DNA from: a virus
UHGV virus genome: UHGV-0186543
DNA: 46,602 nt
Reading direction: 5' to 3' (one strand)
Shown: positions 2,270 through 12,201 of the stretch, piece by piece
Numbering within the stretch: the first letter of the stretch is position 1
Layout of the letters: the number at the start of each line of letters is the position of its first letter
Made by a program: the position numbers and the translations under genes
Notes under the pieces: generated by a model
Database searches by the model: none
What the model saw: the letters and a program-made list of their open reading frames with translations, nothing else
What the model was told of the DNA's origin: nothing

Positions 2270-2680
2270 TCACGTCCCTTTCTTTGCTATCGGAGTGATG
2301 GAACTCAGCAGCAGGCGACAGCGACCGGGCGCGCCAATGCGCTGTCCGGTTATCTTGTCGTAAGTTTCATGCGGTGAGGCACACCAGGTTGTCGCTGTTT
2401 CGTGGAGTTTCACTTGCCGCTCACCATTTCTGCGAATCGCGATCCCGATGTGCGTTTTACCCTTACATTTCACTGCTGGCGCTGCGGCTACGGATGCCTG
2501 ACGGGCAGGCTGAGCTGGTGTTGAAAAATTGCCTGCTTTGGGTCTTGGTACAAAAACCGCACGAGTGCGCGCACGTGGCCCGGCGTTCATATTCCACAAA
2601 ATGACGTCGAGATAGTTTTTACCGTCGTCTATGTGTCCTTTGTCCGACGGGTACTCTAATTTGCCTGAAATGGTGGTCAT
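2270..2680 (-). CDS. hypothetical phage protein (136 aa)
   Basis: The ATG is preceded by the recurrent leader CCGAGGAAAGACCA. Confidence 0.6.
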   Translation of the reverse strand: MTTISGKLEYPSDKGHIDDGKNYLDVILWNMNAGPRARTRAVFVPRPKAGNFSTPAQPARQASVAAAPAVKCKGKTHIGIAIRRNGERQVKLHETATTWCASPHETYDKITGQRIGAPGRCRLLLSSITPIAKKGT

Positions 2681-2718
2681 TGGTCTTTCCTCGGTTATTT
2701 CACGCTGGTCATGCGTGG

Positions 2719-4110
2719 TTAAAATGGGTCCGTATTAAAGTTTTTGTTTGAATACCGTTTTTCACGTTTTCTCGGTTGCTCTGCCTCCTTCTGGATGCGT
2801 AATTTTTCGCGTGCTACGTGTTGATCAATTGGCAGGAAATGCCCATTCCGGAATTCCTGATAAATAATTTCACCTGCCCCGCCAGAACGGTTTTTACCGA
2901 TAATCACCTCGGCGATACCCTTTGCAGGTGAATCAGGTGTGTAAACTTCATCGCGGTACAAAAACAAAATGCTGTCAGCGTCCTGCTCAACACTGCCGGA
3001 ATCGCGCAGGTCCGACATCACCGGGCGACGCTGGCCAGCAGGTCGAGAATCCACCTGGCGGGAAAGCTGGCTAAGAGCAAAAACAGGGGTATGCAGACGC
3101 ATGGCCATAGTCTTCATGTTGCGGGAGATATGCCCGACAGCGAGATCGTGGCGCTCGGCCTTCGGTTTTTTGATCAGGCCCATGTAATCAACACCAATCA
3201 ACTTCAGGTGCGGATAACGGCGTTTATGAGTCTCTGCAATGGCGCGGATCTGCTCAATCGTCAAATCAGTGGCATCAACAATCCAGATATCGCGATCCTG
3301 CATGATTGCAAGCGCGGCGGTTAATCTGGTCAAATCCTCATCGTCCATTTCTTTTGGATTACGCAGACGCGACGTGGACATATTCCCAGCCCCGGCAACG
3401 GTACGTTCAACAATCTGCTGAGCGCCCATTTCCATGCTGAAAAACAGTGCGCCGCCGCCATCTGCGGTAACGCCATCGATAATCTTCAGGGTAAATTCCG
3501 TTTTCCCCATGCCTGGACGACCGGCAACCACAACAAGGTCGGTCATGTTGATACCGCCCAGGGCGACATCCAGATCCTCGACTCCGGTTTTCAGCATCAT
3601 TTCCTGCGCGTCGCCAGACATCCGTTTATCAACGGTGTCAATGTAGAGCGGTAACAGCTCTTTGATGTGTACCGGCTGGACTGTGCCGGTAGCGGCGCTC
3701 ATATCCAGCACCTGAGCAACATGAGATTCAATAACCTCATCACGCTGACTCTGGTTTACAGCGTTACGGATACCATCCGCGCCAGATTGCAACAATGCCG
3801 CCATTTTGCGGCTCCGCCATGCCCGCACCATTTTCCCAGCATAGCCTTTCAGATTCGGTACCGTTGCCGGGATCCGGGATATTTGAGACAGATCCGCAAG
3901 GCTGGAACCGCCCAGCGCTTCGCTGATAAACAACATGTCGATCATGCCGTTCGCCAGTGCCTGCTTTTTGATTTCGCTGAAAGCGCGACGGTGAAACACG
4001 ATGCTGAAGGCTTCCTCCGGAGTAGTGGCAATCACATCAAACGCGTCAGGCGTCGCGCCACCGTTAATCAGACCAGCGAGAACGATCGCTTCCAGTTCTT
4101 CTGGATTCAT
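2719..4110 (-). CDS. dnaB: replicative DNA helicase, DnaB family
   Basis: 463 aa with Walker A GRPGMGKTEF, DnaB C-terminal motifs (ALSQLSRQVDSR, LRDSGSVEQDAD) and a DnaB-like N-terminal domain. Confidence 0.9.
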   Translation of the reverse strand: MNPEELEAIVLAGLINGGATPDAFDVIATTPEEAFSIVFHRRAFSEIKKQALANGMIDMLFISEALGGSSLADLSQISRIPATVPNLKGYAGKMVRAWRSRKMAALLQSGADGIRNAVNQSQRDEVIESHVAQVLDMSAATGTVQPVHIKELLPLYIDTVDKRMSGDAQEMMLKTGVEDLDVALGGINMTDLVVVAGRPGMGKTEFTLKIIDGVTADGGGALFFSMEMGAQQIVERTVAGAGNMSTSRLRNPKEMDDEDLTRLTAALAIMQDRDIWIVDATDLTIEQIRAIAETHKRRYPHLKLIGVDYMGLIKKPKAERHDLAVGHISRNMKTMAMRLHTPVFALSQLSRQVDSRPAGQRRPVMSDLRDSGSVEQDADSILFLYRDEVYTPDSPAKGIAEVIIGKNRSGGAGEIIYQEFRNGHFLPIDQHVAREKLRIQKEAEQPRKREKRYSNKNFNTDPF

Positions 4111-5171
4111 AATGCCCCTTCCCTGGTTTTACGCAGTGTTTCTGGCTTCATCAGGTAATCAAACCCTGCCCGCCAGCCGGTGCGATATTCGCCGCCGAAA
4201 TAGAAGTCTGGGGCGTTATCGCGGAATTTTTCGAAGTAGCCGATAAATGCGCCAAGAGTTTGCGTGCGCATATGTGCCAGCAGGCGCAGGATTGCCCGAC
4301 GGCGGTCAGTATCAATTTCAGCTATAGGTAGCAGGTCGCCCAGAATCTCGTTGTAGCCCTTCACAACTTCAGCAGGGTCAACGGCAGCCTCAGCAGTGGC
4401 CCACGTCTCAGCGTCAGCCAGGTATCCGTCAAACCGGTTTACGCGGCAAATGTTCGCAGGTTTCGGAACGCTTCCGCTACGACGGCGCCATGTCGCAATA
4501 ACCCAACGAATTACTAACTGAATCTCAGCCACGCTGTAACCAGCGCGGGTGGTGGTGGCAGTTAGCAGCATGACAAACGGTTTAACGTCGCGGCAGCGGG
4601 TACCGACTTTCTCGTTGTAGTAGTTCAGAGCTTTTTGAGCGTCAGCGAGAATGATTTCCTCGCCCTCCCCCTTTTGGGGGTAAGGGGGATCTTTTATCTC
4701 TGTAGTACTCTCTGTTGTATTCTCTGTAAGAGATTGGGTCATTTTGACCTTAGCGCATGGGTCAACTTGACCTGATGCTTGGGTCACATTGACCTCTTCG
4801 ATTGGGTCAACTTGACCTAATCGATTGGCCACAGGGAATGTTGTCTCTTCAATCTTACATAACTGGGCATAATTGATTGAATACCACTTGGTTTTATCCC
4901 AGGCATCACTGTTAAAGTTCCCAGTAAATACCACATTCAATTTTTCCAGATTGGCCAGCACGCGTTTTATTGTCGACTCGCTCCAGAACGGGAATTGTTC
5001 TTGCCAATCGGTCACACTGTTGTACACCCAGTGGCGATTTTCGAAGAAATTTTGAGATGAATTCAGCCAGTAGTGGATTTGCTGTAGAACGATGGCTTCA
5101 TTCAACCCTATAGTGCATGCCAACGTGGGCAGGACCTGAAGGGGGTTTTCGTTAATCAGCAAACGACTCAT
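4107..5171 (-). CDS. replication initiator / replisome organizer (lambda O analogue)
   Basis: Located directly upstream of dnaB with an ATGA overlap. Contains four internal iterons, like lambda O. Start moved to ATG 5171 (GGAG 9 nt upstream; the track start 5207 is TTG). Confidence 0.75.
   Translation of the reverse strand: MSRLLINENPLQVLPTLACTIGLNEAIVLQQIHYWLNSSQNFFENRHWVYNSVTDWQEQFPFWSESTIKRVLANLEKLNVVFTGNFNSDAWDKTKWYSINYAQLCKIEETTFPVANRLGQVDPIEEVNVTQASGQVDPCAKVKMTQSLTENTTESTTEIKDPPYPQKGEGEEIILADAQKALNYYNEKVGTRCRDVKPFVMLLTATTTRAGYSVAEIQLVIRWVIATWRRRSGSVPKPANICRVNRFDGYLADAETWATAEAAVDPAEVVKGYNEILGDLLPIAEIDTDRRRAILRLLAHMRTQTLGAFIGYFEKFRDNAPDFYFGGEYRTGWRAGFDYLMKPETLRKTREGAL
4735..4817. repeat. 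origin of replication iterons (4 x 15 bp)
   Basis: TGGGTCAttTTGACC (4735), TGGGTCAacTTGACC (4758), TGGGTCAcaTTGACC (4780) and TGGGTCAacTTGACC (4803). Spacing is 22-23 bp. Each has internal dyad symmetry GGTCA/TGACC. Confidence 0.8.
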
Positions 5172-5173
5172 AC

Positions 5174-5398
5174 TCAGATCTCCAGAGCTTCGGCTATCTG
5201 ACGACAACCGGCTTCATAGTCCGCATTGCTCAGCCCTTTGTCGCGCAACTCGACCTTCCTGGATTCATACTGCTCCCACACCGAAAGCGCGGCAGCCATA
5301 CGCCCATCAAAAATAGGTTGGATCTCTGCAACATGTGCCGGGCGTCCATTCAGGTGCCAGCCGTTACGCCAGGTAATGCGGTCAATATGTCTTAACAT
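5174..5398 (-). CDS. hypothetical phage protein (74 aa)
   Basis: The ATG is preceded by CCGAGGAAAGACCG. The stop lies 2 nt before the initiator gene ATG. Confidence 0.6.
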   Translation of the reverse strand: MLRHIDRITWRNGWHLNGRPAHVAEIQPIFDGRMAAALSVWEQYESRKVELRDKGLSNADYEAGCRQIAEALEI

Positions 5399-5437
5399 CG
5401 GTCTTTCCTCGGTATAAGTTAAACGCTGGTCAGGCGC

Positions 5438-5914
5438 TCATGCATGGTGGCCTTGCGCAGTGCTTATCACTGCCCCTCGCGTCGCTACCAGCGCCGCTAT
5501 TGCTTCGTCAATTTCCTGGATAGTTAACTCTGGCGCGAAGTGGAGATGTACAGCGTTAATCGCTTCCACCCCTTCTTTTGCCGCCAGCGTTGCCAGCAAA
5601 ACGGGATCGCCCGGCGACTCCAGACGCGCCCGCCGTTCTGCGGGTAGCACGGCTTTCATCACACTGGCCAGCACCTGAGTTTTTCGGCGCGCCGCCGTTG
5701 TCTCGCCACGTAACCAGCGAAAGATTTTCTGCCGGTTGTTGTTGATGGCTCTCCAGTCCACGTTACCGTCCGCGTCCTCAAATTCATGTAGTCTCAACTC
5801 ATCATTGCGTCCCTGACTGAACCAGGCCCGGCAGATTTCAATTGTGACGAGTTCCTGCCCTGCCCTTGCCGCCCAGGTCAAAATCTCTTTTTGTAATTCC
5901 TCTGGGTTTTCCAT
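5438..5914 (-). CDS. YdaT-family protein (CII-like regulator position)
   Basis: 158 aa immediately downstream of the cro-like gene. The segment KIFRWLRGETTAARRKTQVLASVMKAVLPAERRARL resembles my recollection of Rac YdaT (YHRWLKGETKTQREKIQKLIPAILAILPRELRHRL). Confidence 0.55.
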   Translation of the reverse strand: MENPEELQKEILTWAARAGQELVTIEICRAWFSQGRNDELRLHEFEDADGNVDWRAINNNRQKIFRWLRGETTAARRKTQVLASVMKAVLPAERRARLESPGDPVLLATLAAKEGVEAINAVHLHFAPELTIQEIDEAIAALVATRGAVISTAQGHHA

Positions 5915-5973
5915 AGCGTCTCCTGTCGCTAAAAATTGATTACGCTTAATCAGATGTAATAAGCCGCCCTTTG

Positions 5974-6171
5974 CTAAGCTTTTTCATGTTTTGGAACATC
6001 GTAAAAAGTCGGGTCATATTTCAGTGCTCCGTTAGTGATATGGTCGAGTCGAGCAGCTCGCTTTTCAGGAACTGTTGCCCCCCAACGAGTAACCGCCACT
6101 TGAGATATACCCAGCACCTTGGCTGTGGCTGTCTTTGAACCAAAAAAACTAATAACCGTCTCTGTTTTCAT
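5974..6171 (-). CDS. Cro/YdaS-like HTH regulator
   Basis: 65 aa with HTH KTATAKVLGISQVAVTRW. Divergent from the repressor gene. SD GGAGGG upstream of the ATG. Confidence 0.8.
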   Translation of the reverse strand: MKTETVISFFGSKTATAKVLGISQVAVTRWGATVPEKRAARLDHITNGALKYDPTFYDVPKHEKA

Positions 6172-6182
6172 AATCCCTCCAC

Positions 6183-6235
6183 GTAACTTTTGTTAGCAAC
6201 ATAAATACTAACGAAAGTTATGTCAAGTTAACTTA
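6183..6235. promoter_or_regulatory. immunity switch: PR promoter plus operators
   Basis: Minus strand: TTGACA (6221-6226), 17 nt, TATGTT (6198-6203). Operators of type CTAAC-N4-GTTA at 6184-6196 (reverse-complement reading) and 6208-6220. Palindrome AAGTTAACTT at 6225-6234. Confidence 0.7.
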
Positions 6236-6239
6236 TATT

Positions 6240-6653
6240 ATGAGGATGAAGAATTTGATGCTTAGCGACCGTTTATCTCAAAGACGCAAACAGCTTGGTC
6301 TAACCCAACAACAGCTTGCTGATATGGTTGGAAGATCGAGTGTGAGCGTTTTTAAATGGGAAAGCGGACAAAATGAACCAAAGGGTCAGAACTTGCTGGC
6401 TTTGGCCAATGCACTTAAGTGTTCTGCCACATGGCTGCTTTTTGGTGACGAAGACCAGGCACCAACTCCGGTAGACGAATTACCAACAGAGCTGGATTCA
6501 CGTCAAAAAAGATTGTTAGAGTTATTTGATTCATTACCCGAGTCAGAAAAAGAAAAGCAACTAATTGAATTAGAAGATAAAGTTGAAAACTTTAATCGTT
6601 TATTTGAAGAGTTACTGGTTACCAGAAAGAAACTAACCCCCACCAAAAAATAA
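6240..6653 (+). CDS. CI-type repressor, XRE-family HTH, no S24 peptidase domain
   Basis: 137 aa. HTH LTQQQLADMVGRSSVSVFKWESG. Acidic, coiled-coil-like C-terminus. Too short for, and lacking, a LexA/CI autocleavage domain. Start could be 6240 (nearly leaderless) or ATG 6258. Confidence 0.85.
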   Translation: MRMKNLMLSDRLSQRRKQLGLTQQQLADMVGRSSVSVFKWESGQNEPKGQNLLALANALKCSATWLLFGDEDQAPTPVDELPTELDSRQKRLLELFDSLPESEKEKQLIELEDKVENFNRLFEELLVTRKKLTPTKK

Positions 6654-6656
6654 AAT

Positions 6657-6692
6657 AAAGGCAATGTTTTCAATGCATTGCCTTTATTTTTA
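6657..6692 (+). terminator. intrinsic terminator after the repressor gene
   Basis: AAAGGCAATG ... CATTGCCTTT stem (6657-6666 / 6676-6685) followed by ATTTTTA. Confidence 0.75.
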
Positions 6693-6701
6693 CCCCAAAT
6701 A

Positions 6702-6752
6702 CTAACCTTTGTTATAAAACGCCTTGCACATAAAATTACCTTTAGTTATATT
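6702..6752 (+). promoter_or_regulatory. candidate PL promoter with operator-like sites
   Basis: TTGCAC (6724-6729), 17 nt, TATATT (6747-6752). CTAACctttGTTA at 6702-6714 matches the PR operators. A weaker TTACctttaGTTA at 6737-6749 has an N5 spacer. Confidence 0.55.
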
Positions 6753-6800
6753 CATTCCATCAACAACGCTTACCCAGCGGCAGTTGTTCAGAAACAAGTT

Positions 6801-6823
6801 CTGACAGCCGGAAAGACGGCACC
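6801..6823 (+). repeat. 23-bp direct repeat, copy 1
   Basis: ctgacagccggaaagacggcacc, identical to 7254-7276. Confidence 0.9.
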
Positions 6824-7108
6824 AAATTTTGCGCGTCGGCGCCAACACGATGACAGAGGGAAAGACTTCACCGGCATATGGCACATGTGTCGAAGCGGTC
6901 TGGATGGAAGCGGAGCCTTAACGCGTTGTCTCCATAGCAGGTAGCCGGAATGTGCAAGCCACAGCCAGGTATGAGCGATTGATTCACCATCAAGGCGATA
7001 CGGTGTGACCACCAGGGAAGAGTCCTGGCTACAACACGAGAGCGCACTTCATCGACTCAACTTTGAGCTTTGTCGTTAAATTTTGAAATGGCGGAGTGCG
7101 CTCCCGGT

Positions 7109-7173
7109 TGTGGTGAACAGGTGTTTAACGGGAACTCCCTGCCCGTTACCCGGTTCGATTCCGGGCGCTACAC
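7109..7173 (+). ncRNA. tRNA-like element (T-arm plus acceptor-like stem), not a canonical tRNA
   Basis: CCCGG-TTCGATT-CCGGG T-arm at 7149-7165. 7166-7172 CGCTACA can pair with 7109-7115 TGTGGTG (two G-U pairs). The interior is only 33 nt, with no D-arm and a 9-nt central loop. Confidence 0.3.
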
Positions 7174-7253
7174 CGTAATTATTGGGACCCTCTGGTGAAA
7201 GCCAGAGCCTCTCGCAGAGAGGCGCAACGAGGAAAGACCGGGCATGACCAGCC

Positions 7254-7276
7254 CTGACAGCCGGAAAGACGGCACC
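7254..7276 (+). repeat. 23-bp direct repeat, copy 2
   Basis: ctgacagccggaaagacggcacc, identical to 6801-6823 and 453 bp downstream of it. Confidence 0.9.
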
Positions 7277-7430
7277 CTTTAGATGGCAAAAGACCCGCAC
7301 AAGGCGGGCCAGTTACCCCGAACGGCGACCAAACCATTCGGATATGGTGCAAGGGACCAACCTTACACCGAGGAAAGACCAACGACAGAGCCGCTGATCG
7401 GTTCTGAGTATACCCCACCAAGGAGTCGCT

Positions 7431-7751
7431 ATGGAAGCGCGCACCATCCCAGTAACACTCTTTATTAATTATGCAACTTCAACTTTCAGCCACGAAAAGC
7501 TGCTTGTTGCGACTGTTGATATGTCAAAAAATTTTCCAGACAGGTACATCCTTCTGGAAAGCCGCGAAATTGAAATTACCGTCAACCAGCCCCAGCCAAT
7601 CGACATCATCGGTTTACAGGTCGAGCAACTGCGTGAACAAAAACAGAAAACAGTCGCCGAAGCCCAACAGCGTATTGCTGCTATCGATGACAAAATCCAG
7701 CAGTTACTTTGCATCGAATACACGCCAGATACTGATGAAATCCCCTACTAA
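7431..7751 (+). CDS. hypothetical early-left protein (106 aa)
   Basis: ATG with AAGGAG 7 nt upstream. C-terminal coiled-coil-like segment. First gene after the long leader. Confidence 0.6.
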   Translation: MEARTIPVTLFINYATSTFSHEKLLVATVDMSKNFPDRYILLESREIEITVNQPQPIDIIGLQVEQLREQKQKTVAEAQQRIAAIDDKIQQLLCIEYTPDTDEIPY

Positions 7752-7781
7752 AGACCACTGACCTGTAATGAGGAAAGACCA

Positions 7782-9995
7782 ATGACCATTTTTAACGGCT
7801 TGTTAGAAGCGAAAAAAGGCGCGCTCAAAAACGGCGCGATCCCGGCGCTGGCCATCGCCATCGACGCCCCTAACAAAAAAGTTGCCGAGAACATCATCAT
7901 CGGCAAATTGTGGGAAGCCTACCCTGACCACGGCGACAACTATTTCAAACCTAAAATCTGGGAAGATGCCCCGGGCCAACCGCGCCCAGGCGTTGGTGAG
8001 TTTGATGAGACGTTCGCCACAGAACACAGTTTTGATGGCGAAAAATGGGTAGTTAACACCCCCGTTGTAGATAGCGGTTCAGCAGATATCGCACAGGTTA
8101 ACGACCTGATGAAACTGCCGGCTCGTGAACGATTCGCCGCCGTTCTGCTGTTCAGCCACGACGCCAACGAAGTCGACAGTGAATTGCTTGCGCAGACGCG
8201 TGAATACCTGGAGATGCTCGACAACAGTGATACTGACAGTGAGGATGAGGTTGACGCATTTAACCGCATCGTTCTTGATGCCATGGTGGCGTGTAAGCCC
8301 ATCGAGTACATGCATATTGCTGGATTGAATAATCTGGTACATGCAATTTTGGCAAGTTGCGATACCCAGGAACAAAACCCGACCAGTTGGACTATCTCCA
8401 AATTTATAAAAAAATGGGTAGAGAATCCCGGTAAACGCGATGAAATGCTGCCGGAGGTAAAACCAGAAACAGCATCCGCACGTCCTTACCAACAGACTCA
8501 CGCCACACTGGATCGTGAAATTGCCTGCGCCCTGTTACCCGTTGGCCCGGAAAAAATCACCCCCAGCGTCCTGAAAGCGGCAGACGAAATAATCAGCCAG
8601 GATCGGGAGGATTTTAAACGCTGGTCAATGGCCTTGCGCACAACGGATCAGATCCTTGCCTATGACCGCGCATCAGTATTCGGTGTTATTCAGAGCGCCC
8701 CCGCAAAAGACACGTACCACTTCCCACAATCCCTGCGCAGTCACATCGACAACTGGCTGCAAGCTAACGGGCAGCGTGATGCAAATGCTGTTGAAGAGAA
8801 GCCAAAGGAAGCAGCACCAAAGGATGATGTAAAAGTCACCAACCACGGCGGCGGACGATTCTCAATTGATGGGATGATGTCAGAAACACCCTCAAATCAT
8901 GGCGAAAAAAGCGAAGCTGCAAATGCTGGAGAACGTAGTTTGCAGCAGTTGCGTGAGCGGTTTGTCACGCCTCGCCATGTGTATGACGTACCTGAAAATA
9001 ACGCCGTCTCACAGAGGGAACCTACAGCTATTACCCCGGCAGAAGAGACTCCTCCACAAGAAAAACTTAGCGAGCAGGTAAAGGATCTGGTGCAGAACGT
9101 TGACGCGCTGGTTGAGCGGATCCATACCGAAGAGCACAAGCGGCAGAATGCAATCTCAGCTATCGAAACGGAGTTAAAGGACTCCGACGACACAGATAAC
9201 CTGGCATTGTGGAAGAACGTATTCAAAACCGATGAGCGCTTCACCAGTGCTTTCTCTCAGAACGGCGGCGGCACATCCATCAACGGCACTTATATAGCGA
9301 TGAAAGCGACTCGCGAATTTGGGCCGTTTGGTATTGGCTGGGGTGTAGAGGTGGTGGAAGAGCGTTTTGATAAAGGCGCACCGATAGTTCGCAAAAAACA
9401 GGTTGGTGAAAAAATAGAATGGGATCTGATTCAAGACGGTGTTGGCGGGTACCTATGTGAAATGCACCACACCATGAAAGTTAGAGTCTGGTACATATTG
9501 AATGGAGTGCGCGGTGAGTCCGAGGCTTACGGATGCACACCTTATATCTACGACACTAAATACGGACCAACAAGCGACGGCGAAGCGCCGAAGAAATCCT
9601 GGACGGATGCTGTTAAGAAAGCGCTATCCCCTCTCGGATTCAGCGCCGATATTTTCATGGGCCTGTACGACAATCCGGAATACCGCCAGAGGAATAAAGC
9701 TGAGTTTGATATCAAGAATGCCAGCGAGAATGCGGAAGATGCTACCCGTCTGCGTAAGGAACTGGATGAGAAGCTTATCAACGTTGCCAATACGCTGGCC
9801 TCCGCGGTAACCACTAACGAAGTAAACAAGGTATTTGGCCTCATCGCCCGCGAAGTGGATGTACACCGAAAAGCAGCAGAAGCCAAAGGCGATAAAGAAT
9901 ATTCATCGTATCTGGGATCGCGCCTGCGCCGTATCACCGACATCAAAACTGAACGCCTCGCCGCCCTCACCGCTGCACAGGAGCAAACCGCATGA
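7782..9995 (+). CDS. large protein with a C-terminal Rad52/Sak-type single-strand annealing domain
   Basis: 737 aa. The C-terminal part, YIAMKATREFGPFGIGWGVEV ... APKKSWTDAVKKALSPLGFSADIFMGLYDNPEY, follows the Rad52 pattern (YIEG..VI..AN..FG..GW ... KEAVTDGLKRALRSFG). The roughly 470-aa acidic N-terminal region is unassigned. Confidence 0.6.
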   Translation: MTIFNGLLEAKKGALKNGAIPALAIAIDAPNKKVAENIIIGKLWEAYPDHGDNYFKPKIWEDAPGQPRPGVGEFDETFATEHSFDGEKWVVNTPVVDSGSADIAQVNDLMKLPARERFAAVLLFSHDANEVDSELLAQTREYLEMLDNSDTDSEDEVDAFNRIVLDAMVACKPIEYMHIAGLNNLVHAILASCDTQEQNPTSWTISKFIKKWVENPGKRDEMLPEVKPETASARPYQQTHATLDREIACALLPVGPEKITPSVLKAADEIISQDREDFKRWSMALRTTDQILAYDRASVFGVIQSAPAKDTYHFPQSLRSHIDNWLQANGQRDANAVEEKPKEAAPKDDVKVTNHGGGRFSIDGMMSETPSNHGEKSEAANAGERSLQQLRERFVTPRHVYDVPENNAVSQREPTAITPAEETPPQEKLSEQVKDLVQNVDALVERIHTEEHKRQNAISAIETELKDSDDTDNLALWKNVFKTDERFTSAFSQNGGGTSINGTYIAMKATREFGPFGIGWGVEVVEERFDKGAPIVRKKQVGEKIEWDLIQDGVGGYLCEMHHTMKVRVWYILNGVRGESEAYGCTPYIYDTKYGPTSDGEAPKKSWTDAVKKALSPLGFSADIFMGLYDNPEYRQRNKAEFDIKNASENAEDATRLRKELDEKLINVANTLASAVTTNEVNKVFGLIAREVDVHRKAAEAKGDKEYSSYLGSRLRRITDIKTERLAALTAAQEQTA

Positions 9996-10561
9996 GCACC
10001 GCTATCGCTATTGCAAAAGAATATGCCAGCCTGATTGACCTGCTGGAAACCTCCGACGAACTGACGCCAGAGATGATCGCCGACACGCTTGAAGGTATGG
10101 AAGGAGAACTGGGAGACAAACTGGACGCCATGATGGTCATCTGCCGCAATTTACAGGGCAATGCCAATACCTGCGCTGAAGAAATGTCTCGCCTGGCTAC
10201 CCGTAAGACGTCCTTTGAAGACAAGGAAAAAGCAATCCGAAAGCATATGCTCGCCTGCATGCAAGCTGCTGGCCTGGATAAACTGAAAACCGCAAAAAAC
10301 ACATTTACTGATGCACAGGGGGCTATCTGGGTAATTATCGATAGCAAAGATAAGATCCCGGATGAGTATGAAGGCGTGTCACTTGTTGATGTAGAAACGG
10401 TTATTACACCAAACAAGCGAGCCATTAAAGAAGTGATTGAATCTGCGGAGGCGGTTGCCGCCGAAATACTGGCGCGTGGAGAAACACCACCAGCCGAGTT
10501 ATTAAACCCGGTACCAGGCGCACATCTGGAACGCGGCGAACGTTCACTGAGGGTACGCTAA
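9992..10561 (+). CDS. Gp157-family protein (Sipho_Gp157-like)
   Basis: 189 aa. The N-terminal YASLIDLLETSDELTPEMIADTLEGMEGELGDKLDAM and later IPDEY pattern are typical of this family. Overlaps the upstream stop. Confidence 0.6.
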   Translation: MSTAIAIAKEYASLIDLLETSDELTPEMIADTLEGMEGELGDKLDAMMVICRNLQGNANTCAEEMSRLATRKTSFEDKEKAIRKHMLACMQAAGLDKLKTAKNTFTDAQGAIWVIIDSKDKIPDEYEGVSLVDVETVITPNKRAIKEVIESAEAVAAEILARGETPPAELLNPVPGAHLERGERSLRVR

Positions 10562-10743
10562 TGCTTAAACTCACATTAAAGCGTGGTGACGCGGTTCACC
10601 TGGTACTTGCCGATGGAACCAACGGCATTATTGAAGCACGGAGCCGCTGCGAACTTGGGCTACACCTGCCAGAAAACATTAAGGTCACTCGGGAGAAATC
10701 GGCATTCCCCCCACCAGAACTGATTACGCCTAATCAGAAATAA
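10561..10743 (+). CDS. CsrA-like small RNA-binding protein (candidate)
   Basis: 60 aa. Ungapped alignment to E. coli CsrA as I recall it: ML.LT...G at the N-terminus and G...P...V.RE at positions 33-45, including the equivalent of the RNA-binding Arg44. TAATG start/stop coupling with the upstream gene. Confidence 0.45.
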   Translation: MLKLTLKRGDAVHLVLADGTNGIIEARSRCELGLHLPENIKVTREKSAFPPPELITPNQK

Positions 10744-10792
10744 AAACTCACCATCGCTAGCATTGCGATTCACCAGTAACCGGAGGATCACA

Positions 10793-11017
10793 ATGCTGCG
10801 ATGGCAACCGGGAGCAACTCTGCTCTCCGCATTTGATATCAAAATTGGCCGACTGTCGGCCAGCGTCAGGAAACAGGCTGTGACCGAGTCTGATATTGCC
10901 CGTGCCTGCAAGGCGGCAGATGACGCAATAAGCTACATAATGAGGAAAGACCATGAGAAGCGATCACGACATAATCACCAGAGAAGAAATGGTCGAGCTG
11001 ACGGGAAGCCCACTTAA
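10793..11017 (+). CDS. hypothetical protein (74 aa)
   Basis: ATG with GGAGG 7 nt upstream. The 3' end overlaps the xis-like ORF by 65 nt in another frame. Confidence 0.45.
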   Translation: MLRWQPGATLLSAFDIKIGRLSASVRKQAVTESDIARACKAADDAISYIMRKDHEKRSRHNHQRRNGRADGKPT

Positions 11018-11216
11018 ATCAAAGCAATGTGAGGCTCTTCGCCGGGCTGGAATTTTCTTCATGGAAAGGGCTGACGGGCACCCAAAAACAACCTGGGGCC
11101 ATTTCATGAACCCAATAAAATTTCGCAATTTACAGGAGGTGACGACGCGAAAAGATGATGAACCTGATTTTGGAGCAATATTTAATGGCCGGAAAGAGAA
11201 AGAACCCAGCAGATAA
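10953..11216 (+). CDS. excisionase-like protein (DUF4224-type)
   Basis: 87 aa. ITREEMVELTGSPLKSKQCEALRRAGIFFMERADGHP matches the DUF4224 pattern usually found just upstream of phage integrases. Leader TGAGGAAAGACC abuts the ATG. Confidence 0.65.
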   Translation: MRSDHDIITREEMVELTGSPLKSKQCEALRRAGIFFMERADGHPKTTWGHFMNPIKFRNLQEVTTRKDDEPDFGAIFNGRKEKEPSR

Positions 11217-12201
11217 CTGGATGCCGCCTCGTGTTTACCAGGGCAAAGCGGCCTACGAATTCAGGAATAAAGATAACAAAGCGATACGCCTGTGCGCATT
11301 GGATGCGCCACGATCAGCCGTATGGCTGGCATATGAAAAAGCGGTCGGTGACGAAAAAGAAAGAAATACTTTTCAGGCGCTCGCGGAACAATTCATGACC
11401 TCCCCTGATTTTATGGATTTGGCAGTCGAAACCAGGAAAGACTACACAAAATATTCCGGAAAAGTTCTGCCTGTCTTCGGGAAGATCGACCCGGATAAAA
11501 TCAAACCTGAACATATTCGGCGCTATATGGATCAACGCGGTTTATCAAGCCGAACTCAGGCAAACAGGGAAAAAAGCTTTATGTCCAGGGTATTCCGTTG
11601 GGGTTATGAACGAGGTTATGTCCAGAGGAATCCTTGTCAGGGAGTTAAGCAGTTTAAAGAGACAGCACGCGAACGTTATATTACGGATGAAGAATATCAG
11701 GCCGTTTATGAAGTATCTCCTGATGTTGTTCGCGTGGCAATGGAGATTGCCTACTTATGCGTGGCCAGACAGAGTGATGTACTTTCATTGCAGAAAGACC
11801 AGCTGTTCGATTCCGGGATCTACATTCGTCAGGGAAAAACCGGCGTTAAGCAAATCAAAGCCTGGTCGCCTCGTCTGCAGAAAGCGATAGCTCTGGCTCG
11901 TTCTCTGCCATTAAAACCGGGAATCAGTAGCCTGTTTGTGATTCATCAAACTACCGGAGGCAAGTACACCCGTGATGGTTTTAACTCTCGTTGGCGTGAT
12001 GTCAAAGCGGCAGCACAGGAAAAATATCCTCATCTGCAAATAGACTTCACATTTCATGATCTGAAAGCAAAAGGTATCTCTGATCTGGAAGGCAGCCTGG
12101 AAGAGAAGCAAGCAATTTCCGGGCATAAGAACCCACGACAGACAGCAGCATATGACCGAAAAGTTAAAGTAGTGCCCGTAGTTGGTGGCCAGAGAAAATG
12201 A
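11185..12201 (+). CDS. int: tyrosine site-specific integrase
   Basis: Start at ATG 11185 (MAGKRKNPADNWMPPRVYQGK). Catalytic-domain motifs ARQSDVLSL, HDLKAKG and GHKNPRQTAAYDR. Adjacent to the tRNA-derived att core. Confidence 0.9.
   Translation: MAGKRKNPADNWMPPRVYQGKAAYEFRNKDNKAIRLCALDAPRSAVWLAYEKAVGDEKERNTFQALAEQFMTSPDFMDLAVETRKDYTKYSGKVLPVFGKIDPDKIKPEHIRRYMDQRGLSSRTQANREKSFMSRVFRWGYERGYVQRNPCQGVKQFKETARERYITDEEYQAVYEVSPDVVRVAMEIAYLCVARQSDVLSLQKDQLFDSGIYIRQGKTGVKQIKAWSPRLQKAIALARSLPLKPGISSLFVIHQTTGGKYTRDGFNSRWRDVKAAAQEKYPHLQIDFTFHDLKAKGISDLEGSLEEKQAISGHKNPRQTAAYDRKVKVVPVVGGQRK

Follow-up and report, generated by a model that had tools for sequence, protein, structure and literature searches.

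An 11-nt word at four early ribosome-binding sites of a lambda-like prophage is a probable docking site of a predicted antisense RNA

UHGV-0186543 is a virus genome of 46,602 nucleotides (nt), here called the window, meaning the whole stretch of DNA that was analysed. It is a lambda-like Escherichia coli prophage in which the 11-mer GAGGAAAGACC recurs six times, four of them as the ribosome-binding site (RBS) of an early gene. We propose that this 11-mer is probably the docking site of a phage-encoded antisense RNA that would occlude the RBSs of replication, recombination and excision genes. The predicted RNA is the product of what is very probably a small gene of ~117 nt, located on the minus strand opposite the last 120 nt of the leftward leader. 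Its structure covaries on that strand, it co-occurs with the 11-mer in related prophages, and its seed and the RBS copies changed together in a Yersinia phage.

Results

The 11-mer heads four early translational units

An exact search of both strands of the window returned six copies of GAGGAAAGACC (Table 1), whereas dinucleotide-preserving shuffles gave a mean of 0.03 and a maximum of 1. This confirms the count in an earlier note made from the sequence alone, and the one-mismatch search proposed there added no site in the window (0.6 expected). Four copies end 0–1 nt 5′ of the ATG of an open reading frame (ORF) and, as the same note had held, these lead unrelated genes: by family assignment the four are mutually unrelated, the first nine codons of the 737-amino-acid (aa) and 136-aa genes being similar. 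The motif heads the first cistron of each of four translational units, namely replication (the 74-aa gene, the O-like initiator and DnaB), the genes after DnaB, recombination (the exonuclease and Gp157) and xis, and a search of the window found it at no further gene of the phage. No credible ORF lies downstream of the copies at 7229 and 7370. The 11-mer proved confined to the early region, as had also been claimed, with six of six copies sense relative to the early operons and usually followed directly by AA. The positions given for these elements earlier were right to within 1 nt, with the exception of a short variant placed at 11443, which lies at 11435.

The 8-mer GGAAAGAC occurs ten times in the window, against 1.4 expected, and its copies beyond the six 11-mers are at 6810, 6859, 7263 and 11435. 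All ten are sense to the local operon and fall within 2.6–11.5 kb, with no copy across the remaining 35 kb of the phage; the copy at 11435, within int, is probably a chance occurrence.

A predicted small RNA gene lies opposite the end of the leftward leader

The gene-less copy at 7370 is the template of the predicted single-stranded seed of the small RNA. Read 5′ to 3′, the predicted RNA comprises a variable 5′ hairpin, the seed UUGGUCUUUCCUC, hairpins D′ and C′, and an intrinsic terminator. When the last 200 nt of the leader were aligned from 37 distinct relatives, we observed serial hairpins with constant loops and covarying stems; in plus-strand view, two hairpins with loop GACCAA stand directly 5′ of the 7370 copy and a GC hairpin with an A run precedes them. 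In folds of each sequence, G.U pairs make up 34/132 (C′), 10/188 (D′) and 8/149 (terminator hairpin) on the minus strand as against 1, 0 and 0 on the plus strand, and the minus-strand folds are better by 1.4–4.1 kcal/mol. These results indicate that the three hairpins are selected on the minus strand.

Covariation was measured in a minus-strand alignment of 29 sequences, in which the C′ and D′ stems together comprise 19 pairs; RNAalifold mis-paired the terminator on the raw alignment, and per-sequence folds and a hand-specified structure were therefore used. Across these two stems 96.5% of the cells are paired and 12 of the 19 pairs have changed on both sides, a result matched by none of 500 shuffles and approached by no slid register. 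Read as plus-strand RNA, the same columns are 80.7% paired, with 1 G.U pair versus 86 on the minus strand. For hairpin D′, 99.6% of cells are paired and 8/9 pairs have changed on both sides; for C′ the values are 93.7% and four pairs. The terminator stem likewise covaries across lineages (CCCGC/GCGGG versus CCCAC/GUGGG) and is followed on the minus strand by a run of 4–7 U in 29/29 sequences. The −10 hexamer, TATACT or TATAAT, is invariant across 26 distinct contexts with variable flanks, and the seed UUGGUCUUUCCUC is invariant in 28 of the 29 aligned RNAs, the exception being the Yersinia phage with UUGGUCUUGCCUC.

On the minus strand, 7284–7400 folded with a minimum free energy (MFE) of −60.8 kcal/mol (z −6.9) and the MFE structure accounted for 80% of the ensemble; the plus-strand values were −33.8 kcal/mol and z −1.9. 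The covariance model R1 matches 7284–7384(−) at 103.7 bits. Thus, a structure backed by covariation is found on one strand only, as expected of a base-pairing small RNA. A generic promoter and terminator scan of the window did not call the signals of this RNA.

Remnants of gene starts had been suggested earlier as an origin of the gene-less copies. This is not supported for the 7370 copy, which is 100% conserved as the minus-strand RNA seed, and is unlikely for the 7229 copy, where the short ORF is broken by frame-shifting indels in relatives. Decayed gene starts were rejected as an explanation: behind the leader copies, the reading frames of the short ORFs are not kept in relatives.

Table 1 Motif copies, predicted RNA gene and neighbouring features in the window. 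Coordinates are those of the whole stretch.
Feature	Position	Strand	Basis or remark
Motif copy, RBS of 136-aa gene (2270-2680)	2682..2692	-	Exact match
Motif copy, RBS of 74-aa gene (5174-5398)	5400..5410	-	Exact match
Motif copy in leader RNA, gene-less	7229..7239	+	Exact match
Motif copy opposite small-RNA seed, gene-less	7370..7380	+	Exact match
Motif copy, RBS of 737-aa exonuclease gene (7782-9995)	7770..7780	+	Exact match
Motif copy, RBS of xis (10953-11216, DUF4224, 87 aa)	10942..10952	+	Exact match
Predicted small antisense RNA gene	7284..7400	-	Covariance model, folding; 5′ end inferred from -10 box
Weak -35 TTCCAT of predicted RNA promoter		-	Sequence match; 18 bp spacing; overlaps ATGGAA of 106-aa gene
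-10 hexamer TATACT of predicted RNA promoter	7407..7412	-	Conservation
Predicted RNA seed UUGGUCUUUCCUC	7370..7382	-	Alignment; reverse complement of copy 7370-7380 plus AA
Hairpin D′, 9-bp stem, loop UUGGUC	7346..7369	-	Covariation
Hairpin C′, 10-bp stem, loop UUGGUC	7317..7342	-	Covariation
Predicted intrinsic terminator GGCCCGC cuugu GCGGGUC, then UUUU	7285..7310	-	Covariation, U run
Cassette hairpin CACGC-AUGACCA-GCGUG	2702..2718	-	Sequence; 9 nt upstream of 2682 copy
Cassette hairpin AGCGC-CUGACCA-GCGUU	5422..5438	-	Loop conserved, stems vary; 11 nt upstream of 5400 copy
Leader hairpin GCCG-GAAAGA-CGGC displaying GGAAAGAC	6807-6820	+	UGACA 5′ of hairpin
Leader hairpin GAGG-GAAAGA-CUUC displaying GGAAAGAC	6856-6869	+	UGACA 5′ of hairpin
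Leader hairpin GGGC-AUGACCA-GCCC	7240-7254	+	Stems covary
Leader hairpin GCCG-GAAAGA-CGGC, contains GGAAAGAC	7260-7273	+	Stems covary (GCCG, GCCGG, GCCCG)
136-aa gene, first after DnaB, further small genes next	2270-2680	-	Rightward early operon
DnaB	2719-4110	-	Rightward early operon
O-like replication initiator	4107-5207	-	Rightward early operon
74-aa gene, overlaps O-like initiator gene	5174-5398	-	Rightward early operon
YdaT-family gene (CII-like)	5438-5914	-	Rightward early operon
cro	5974-6171	-	Rightward early operon
cI-like repressor	6240-6653	+	Terminator 3′ of gene
Operator-like repeats and promoter-like matches	about 6690-6760
106-aa gene	7431-7751	+	First gene of leftward operon
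Leftward operon		+	Order: 106-aa, 737-aa exonuclease, Gp157, 60-aa, DUF4224 excisionase, integrase

The motif and the RNA occur together in relatives

Members of the prophage family are integrated beside tRNA-Leu in 525 of 5426 complete E. coli genomes, ST131 among them, and the family also occurs in Citrobacter, Raoultella, Serratia and Yersinia. IMG/VR was scanned by exact match to GAGGAAAGACCAATG, and 45 contigs of this motif-selected set carry 3–7 copies, like the window and the E. coli loci L001 and L003. Because the set is motif-selected, loci were also fetched through the exonuclease protein alone from species-representative genomes; 4–7 exact copies were present in those of Escherichia whittamii, two Raoultella species, Serratia grimesii and Citrobacter murliniae. 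In locus L003, whose leader is only ~73% identical, seven exact copies occupy the equivalent places. More widely, the motif is exact at the same four gene families though the proteins are ~30% identical and the flanks differ, and at the equivalent of 5400 it is exact where the proteins of the 74-aa gene are as low as 31% identical. It also fronts non-homologous genes at equivalent positions, including a 94-aa gene, a 174-aa gene and, in Serratia phages, a lambda-type Exc excisionase that replaces DUF4224 as xis.

The covariance model found exactly one RNA per phage, always antisense to the leader. It matched 54 of the 131 first sources, which comprise the window plus 130 loci, and 66 of the 80 loci retrieved via the xis protein. 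RNA and motif are seen together in ~120 related prophage loci of Escherichia, Citrobacter, Raoultella, Serratia and Yersinia. Among the 54 RNA-positive sources of the first set, 51 have 3–7 motif copies; the other three comprise one 1.6-kb fragment and the variant-motif phages of Serratia aquatilis and Yersinia. RNA-negative loci have only 1–2 copies. Some of these loci are fragments of the same phages, and others are chance matches, as single copies in unrelated contigs of 39–72% GC. Distant xis homologues in RNA-less phages are without the motif. In lineage L203 and its relatives the seed and hairpin D′ have been lost, with remnants of the terminator and C′ kept, and the exonuclease gene has an ordinary RBS without the motif.

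Seed and targets changed together in a Yersinia phage

If the RNA pairs with the motif, a change in the seed is expected to be accompanied by the same change at the targets. The Yersinia frederiksenii phage (L128) has no GAGGAAAGACC, and carries GAGGCAAGACC at six equivalent places, including the seed copy beside D′; a seventh site, at xis, reads GGGGCAAGACC. The flanks of the GAGGCAAGACC sites are mutually unrelated, which makes it implausible that gene conversion altered exactly 11 nt at all six. Pairing with 16S ribosomal RNA (rRNA) covers GAGG alone within the 11-mer, and since position 5 is unpaired with 16S rRNA, ribosome binding does not explain the A5-to-C change. In Serratia aquatilis AGGAAAGACCA is found at six places, with the first base free. 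Across RNA-positive loci the seed copy and the RBS copies agree in 94 of 94 (93 A-type, 1 C-type and none mixed). These observations suggest that complementarity of seed and target has been kept by compensatory evolution, in what is a single independent event. The objection that the 11-mer is an ordinary Shine-Dalgarno context can be excluded on internal and cross-locus controls: no other phage gene has it, unrelated contigs have single copies, and the Yersinia change is concerted.

The 11-mer could also be an efficient RBS cassette without a regulator, spread and homogenised by recombination as a linker, with the RNA, if real, acting on the leader in cis only. In its favour, GAGG spaced by 7–8 nt makes a good Shine-Dalgarno sequence, the motif borders indels and gene replacements in relatives, and one joint (L205) lies ~10 nt upstream of the xis motif. 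We consider this explanation quite unlikely, since neutral spread would not keep 11 nt exact between flanks of ~70% and proteins of ~30% identity, rRNA pairing accounts for GAGG alone, no late gene has the motif, and the Yersinia change hit exactly the 11-mer at six sites with unrelated flanks. The role of a module-boundary recombination sequence, raised earlier, is retained as a secondary property or by-product. Insertions and replacements in relatives are bordered exactly by the motif, and mosaic breakpoints, which the earlier note had proposed to compare, coincide with it: a 94-aa gene stands between two copies in L125 in comparison with L130, and DUF4224 (L127) and the Exc xis (L126) follow the same upstream context and motif. 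This is the pattern of the mosaic boundary (linker) sequences of lambdoid phages, short conserved stretches at gene borders at which related genomes exchange non-homologous modules.

A second alternative is that the 11-mer is the operator of an RNA-binding protein (the phage 106-aa or 74-aa product, or host CsrA) that represses or activates the four units, the leader copies and GGAAAGAC loops serving as extra sites or a sponge. The motif contains AGGA, GGAAAGAC is displayed in leader hairpin loops in the manner of CsrA sites, several small conserved proteins of unassigned function are encoded beside the sites, and the leader and the CUGACCA hairpins are not yet accounted for by RNA pairing. 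A protein operator nevertheless seems unlikely. It leaves unexplained that the sole complementary sequence in the phage is a minus-strand RNA with a −10 box, a terminator and strand-specific covariation; it needs a simultaneous change of protein specificity in Yersinia; and domain searches found no RNA-binding domain in the neighbouring proteins. For a host factor there is no call for a concerted A-to-C change in one phage, and CsrA, which requires only GGA, would not freeze 11 nt. GGA is indeed in every copy; in the leader hairpins it is partly within the stems, all 11 nt of the motif are invariant, and the A5-to-C change is concerted. The shared translational operator that the earlier note put forward stands in substance, with the antisense RNA opposite 7370, not a small protein, as the most likely regulator.

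Predicted pairing in trans

The RNA is predicted to pair with the 2682 site over 20 nt with one mismatch (95%), with the 5400 site over 19 nt (95%) and with the 7770 site over 17 nt. Duplexes of the seed region were computed over both strands of the entire window. With the cis-antisense site set aside, the three best are those in trans at 5400 (−40.3 kcal/mol), 2682 (−37.6) and 7770 (−35.3), against a background of −14.6 ± 4.4 kcal/mol; the 7229 site gives −31.6 kcal/mol.

Most sites, the xis site excluded, also have a small GC hairpin with a 7-nt loop, CUGACCA, ending 8–14 nt upstream. This cassette hairpin is present in 95 of 148 distinct contexts, and its loop is exactly CUGACCA in 61 of the 95. 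The loop sequence GACCA(G/A) complements the UUGGUC loops of the RNA, and the order of the elements fits a linear duplex plus a kissing loop. The loop core also recurs in DNA. Four palindromic repeats GGGTCA(N4)TGACC, in two 45-nt tandem units at 4734–4823 inside the O-like initiator gene, presumably form the replication origin, and their TGACC half-site is the core of the cassette hairpin loops as well.

The motif might accordingly be read as a site on duplex DNA that binds a protein of replication, recombination or transcription, with TGACC as half-sites of the O-like initiator (origin repeats GGGTCAAnTTGACC), given that the iterons contain TGACC/GGTCA and that TGACC recurs in the cassette loops. 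We regard this as very improbable: ten of ten GGAAAGAC copies follow the orientation of transcription, the motif is fixed in position relative to start codons, and conserved hairpin loops on variable stems are typical of RNA.

Proposed mechanism

Under the proposed antisense mechanism, the RNA would be transcribed and pair in trans with its sites over 12–20 bp, possibly assisted by a kissing contact between its UUGGUC loops and the CUGACCA loop of the upstream hairpin. The duplex over the Shine-Dalgarno sequence and start codon would block the ribosome at the four units, and the RNA-mRNA duplex may also be cut. The initiation regions of cro, the CII-like ydaT and the 106-aa gene differ from the motif, and these genes would thereby escape. 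In a lysogen, or during its establishment, replication, recombination and excision would be suppressed, and the RNA may in this way act as a safeguard or timer of lysogeny. After induction, convergent leftward transcription would occlude the RNA promoter and supply complementary leader in excess; because the leader is fully complementary to the RNA and holds extra sites, strong leftward transcription should neutralise it.

Several observations weigh against this mechanism. The transcript of the RNA gene and both of its ends are predictions from sequence, the poor −35 means that the promoter may be weak or need an activator, and in the predicted fold of the window's own RNA the first 6 nt of the seed form pairs. 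At the xis site pairing extends over 12 nt only, and the L203 lineage, in which the seed is lost, still has the motif at xis. There is one independent seed-variant lineage, so that the compensatory evidence amounts to a single event, albeit at six sites, and the equivalent leader loop in Yersinia reads GGGAAGAC and did not follow the change of the seed. Finally, G.U pairs in the cassette hairpin number 32 on the sense strand versus 71 on the antisense strand; as these counts do not favour the sense strand, the kissing contact is a conjecture.

A more far-reaching, tentative and on balance doubtful version treats the three UUGGUC modules (the linear seed and two loops) as a multivalent RNA immunity parallel to CI. 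It would clamp the loop, Shine-Dalgarno sequence and start codon of the replication, recombination and excision units, with the leader as a sponge that titrates the RNA on induction. Since relatives whose repressor regions differ share the 11-mer unchanged, the RNA would also silence superinfecting heteroimmune relatives, and seed variants (GGCAAGACC, Yersinia) would define immunity groups.

If the antisense mechanism is correct, the phage would possess a compact internal RNA regulon that gates replication, recombination and excision while sparing the decision regulators, and thus a second tier of control over lysogeny, in addition to the repressor. The mechanism would account for a class of gene-less RBSs in phage leaders, and a conserved regulatory word would double as a recombination joint that shapes mosaic genomes. 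The Yersinia allele would be a natural compensatory variant usable for a genetic test.

Comparison with known regulatory RNAs

Phage antisense regulators are a known principle; the RNA molecule predicted here matches none of those compared below and appears to be previously undescribed. Rfam 15 has no family at 7284–7400: a scan of the whole window at gathering thresholds matched only at 873–958(−) and 1018–1070(−), and a permissive scan of 6600–7850 on both strands found nothing related. Megablast against deposited phages returned no close relative, and a sensitive search of deposited phages found the locus only in vB_SmeS_BUCT708/709, where it is annotated as hypothetical proteins. Literature searches by sequence and topic gave no account of this RNA, and HnrS, PreS, StxS, 24B_1, sar, OOP and c4 differ from it; recently described prophage RNAs such as HnrS are located elsewhere and are different molecules.

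The c4 RNA of P1 and P7 is a structured phage RNA whose short exposed sequences pair with repeated sites on early mRNA, one of which covers an RBS, and it adds an RNA layer to the immunity of these phages (immI region). c4 (RF01695) shares with the RNA predicted here the plan of a phage-encoded structured small RNA with repeated complementary sites in early mRNA. However, 7284–7400 has no sequence or covariance-model similarity to RF01695 or clan CL00128, and the position typical of C4, on the same strand upstream of the target operon with a1/b1 and a2/b2 boxes, is not found here. Moreover, c4 is processed from its targets' own transcript and controls one operon (icd-ant), whereas the RNA predicted here is antisense to the leftward leader and would have at least four dispersed targets in two divergent early operons.

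The repeated boxes and the architecture of the RNA each have a further parallel. The P4 CI RNA, a single small RNA made from the same strand and matched by repeated complementary boxes (seqA/seqC) in the early leader of its own phage, works by terminating transcription prematurely. FinP of F-like plasmids has two stem-loops and a terminator, is antisense to a 5′ leader including the RBS, and has a single cis target. The RNA predicted here resembles P4 CI in the repeated boxes in its own leader and FinP in the two-stem-loop and terminator architecture; neither has sequence in common with it.

The functions of the cis-antisense RNAs P22 sar (ant), lambda OOP (cII) and lambda paQ (Q) have been summarised in a 2025 review of phage small RNAs, which lists nothing similar to the RNA described here (PMC12197685). 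Like these, the predicted RNA is short and would be made from its own promoter, up to an intrinsic terminator, opposite an early or regulatory transcript; in sequence it is unrelated to sar. Each of the three lowers expression of a lytic or decision gene and acts only on the gene it overlaps, whereas here the overlap is with a non-coding leader and the coding targets would be reached elsewhere through an 11–13 nt word. What appears distinctive is that one cis-antisense RNA would find an identical 11–13 nt target word at the head of four or more units scattered over both early operons.

The leftward leader

The region about 6690–6760 looks like the leftward operator and promoter, as its repeats are shared with the cI-cro region and it has −35/−10-like matches. 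The ~670 nt after it, without an annotated gene, make up the leader of the leftward (PL-type) early operon. In addition to the stretch that is fully complementary to the RNA, this leader contains the 7229 copy, a CUGACCA-type hairpin and three GGAAAGAC hairpins. One or two gene-less copies are present at the 7229 region in most relatives. The 7229 copy probably offers the RNA a further place to bind on the leftward transcript, as a target or as a decoy, and the leader copies and hairpins may serve as additional docking sites through which the leader becomes a target or a sponge.

The leader hairpins, with GC stems and purine GAAAGA loops, are reminiscent of lambda boxB (GAAAA, GAAGA). Unlike lambda N/nut, the phage has no arginine-rich N-like protein, no boxA and no site after cro, and the hairpins occur 3–6 times. 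N/nut antitermination was rejected on these grounds, as no N-like protein, boxA or rightward site is present: the 106-aa first leftward gene product is not arginine-rich and has no Pfam match, and the cro-ydaT spacer has no such hairpin.

Several relatives have good plus-strand intrinsic terminators just 5′ of the first leader motif copy (L126, about 9100–9145; L129, about 9375–9418; L083, L069 and related loci at hairpin B), and the RNA terminator is bidirectional in some relatives (AAAAAAACCCGCcgaaGCGGGTTCTTTT). Leftward transcription in relatives with leader terminators may need read-through or antitermination.

Parts of the leader have been exchanged. In strain Z0117EC0036 (L001 7870–8099), an unrelated 230 nt replaces the 87-nt segment 7169–7255 including the 7229 copy, with one breakpoint at a repeated CTGACAGCCGGAAAGACGGCACC element. 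Leader segment 6935–7030 (+) and its equivalent L002 2501–2589 are 77–79% identical to a spacer in P1-like plasmids (161 plasmid matches), which is unannotated and lies between tRNA-Ile and the dnaB-like ban gene; the segment is missing in L003, which makes the 5′ half of the leader mosaic in its own right. A tRNA-like fragment at 7093–7175 (+) has the T-arm GGTTCGATTCCGGGCGC (about 7150–7175) and a weak 17-bit match to tRNA-Sec, and a similar 20-mer is found inside int at 11805–11824. ARAGORN called no tRNA in the window.

Other features of the early region

A second common initiation region, AGGAG(A/U)CGCUAUGGAA, is found at 5909–5924 (−) and 7421–7436 (+) with 15 of 16 nt matching. It is placed at the start of ydaT and of the 106-aa gene, which come first after the switch in the two early operons; the 106-aa copy overlaps the weak −35 element of the promoter predicted for the RNA. 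Between cro and ydaT, TTGATTacgcttAATCAg at 5936–5953 resembles the inverted repeat reported as the operator of YdaT (CII-like) in prophage CP-933P.

An unannotated ORF at 10763–11017 (+) runs through the xis motif copy (..ISYIMRKDHEK..). Third-position variation 5′ of the motif in relatives suggests that this ORF is real and ends in or after the motif.

At 873–1070 (−) the window has a C4 antisense RNA (74.5 bits), a1/b1 boxes and isrK (80.4 bits). This P1-type immI unit sits upstream of an ORF6N-type antirepressor gene (ORF 33–869, −) and, being genuine, gives the phage a second, unrelated RNA-based control. The c4 and isrK RNAs were rejected as regulators of the 11-mer, as no complement of the motif lies inside them.

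Outside the prophage family, an unrelated group of IMG/VR phages (L006, L009, L013, L021, L028 and L037; 22–85 kb, GC 45–46%) has one copy of GAGGAAAGACCAATGACC, and a covariance-model search of these contigs detected no such RNA. In this group CCTTTCCT precedes GAGGAAAGACCAATGACC and could fold back on the Shine-Dalgarno sequence, with AGACCAAACGACCA upstream.

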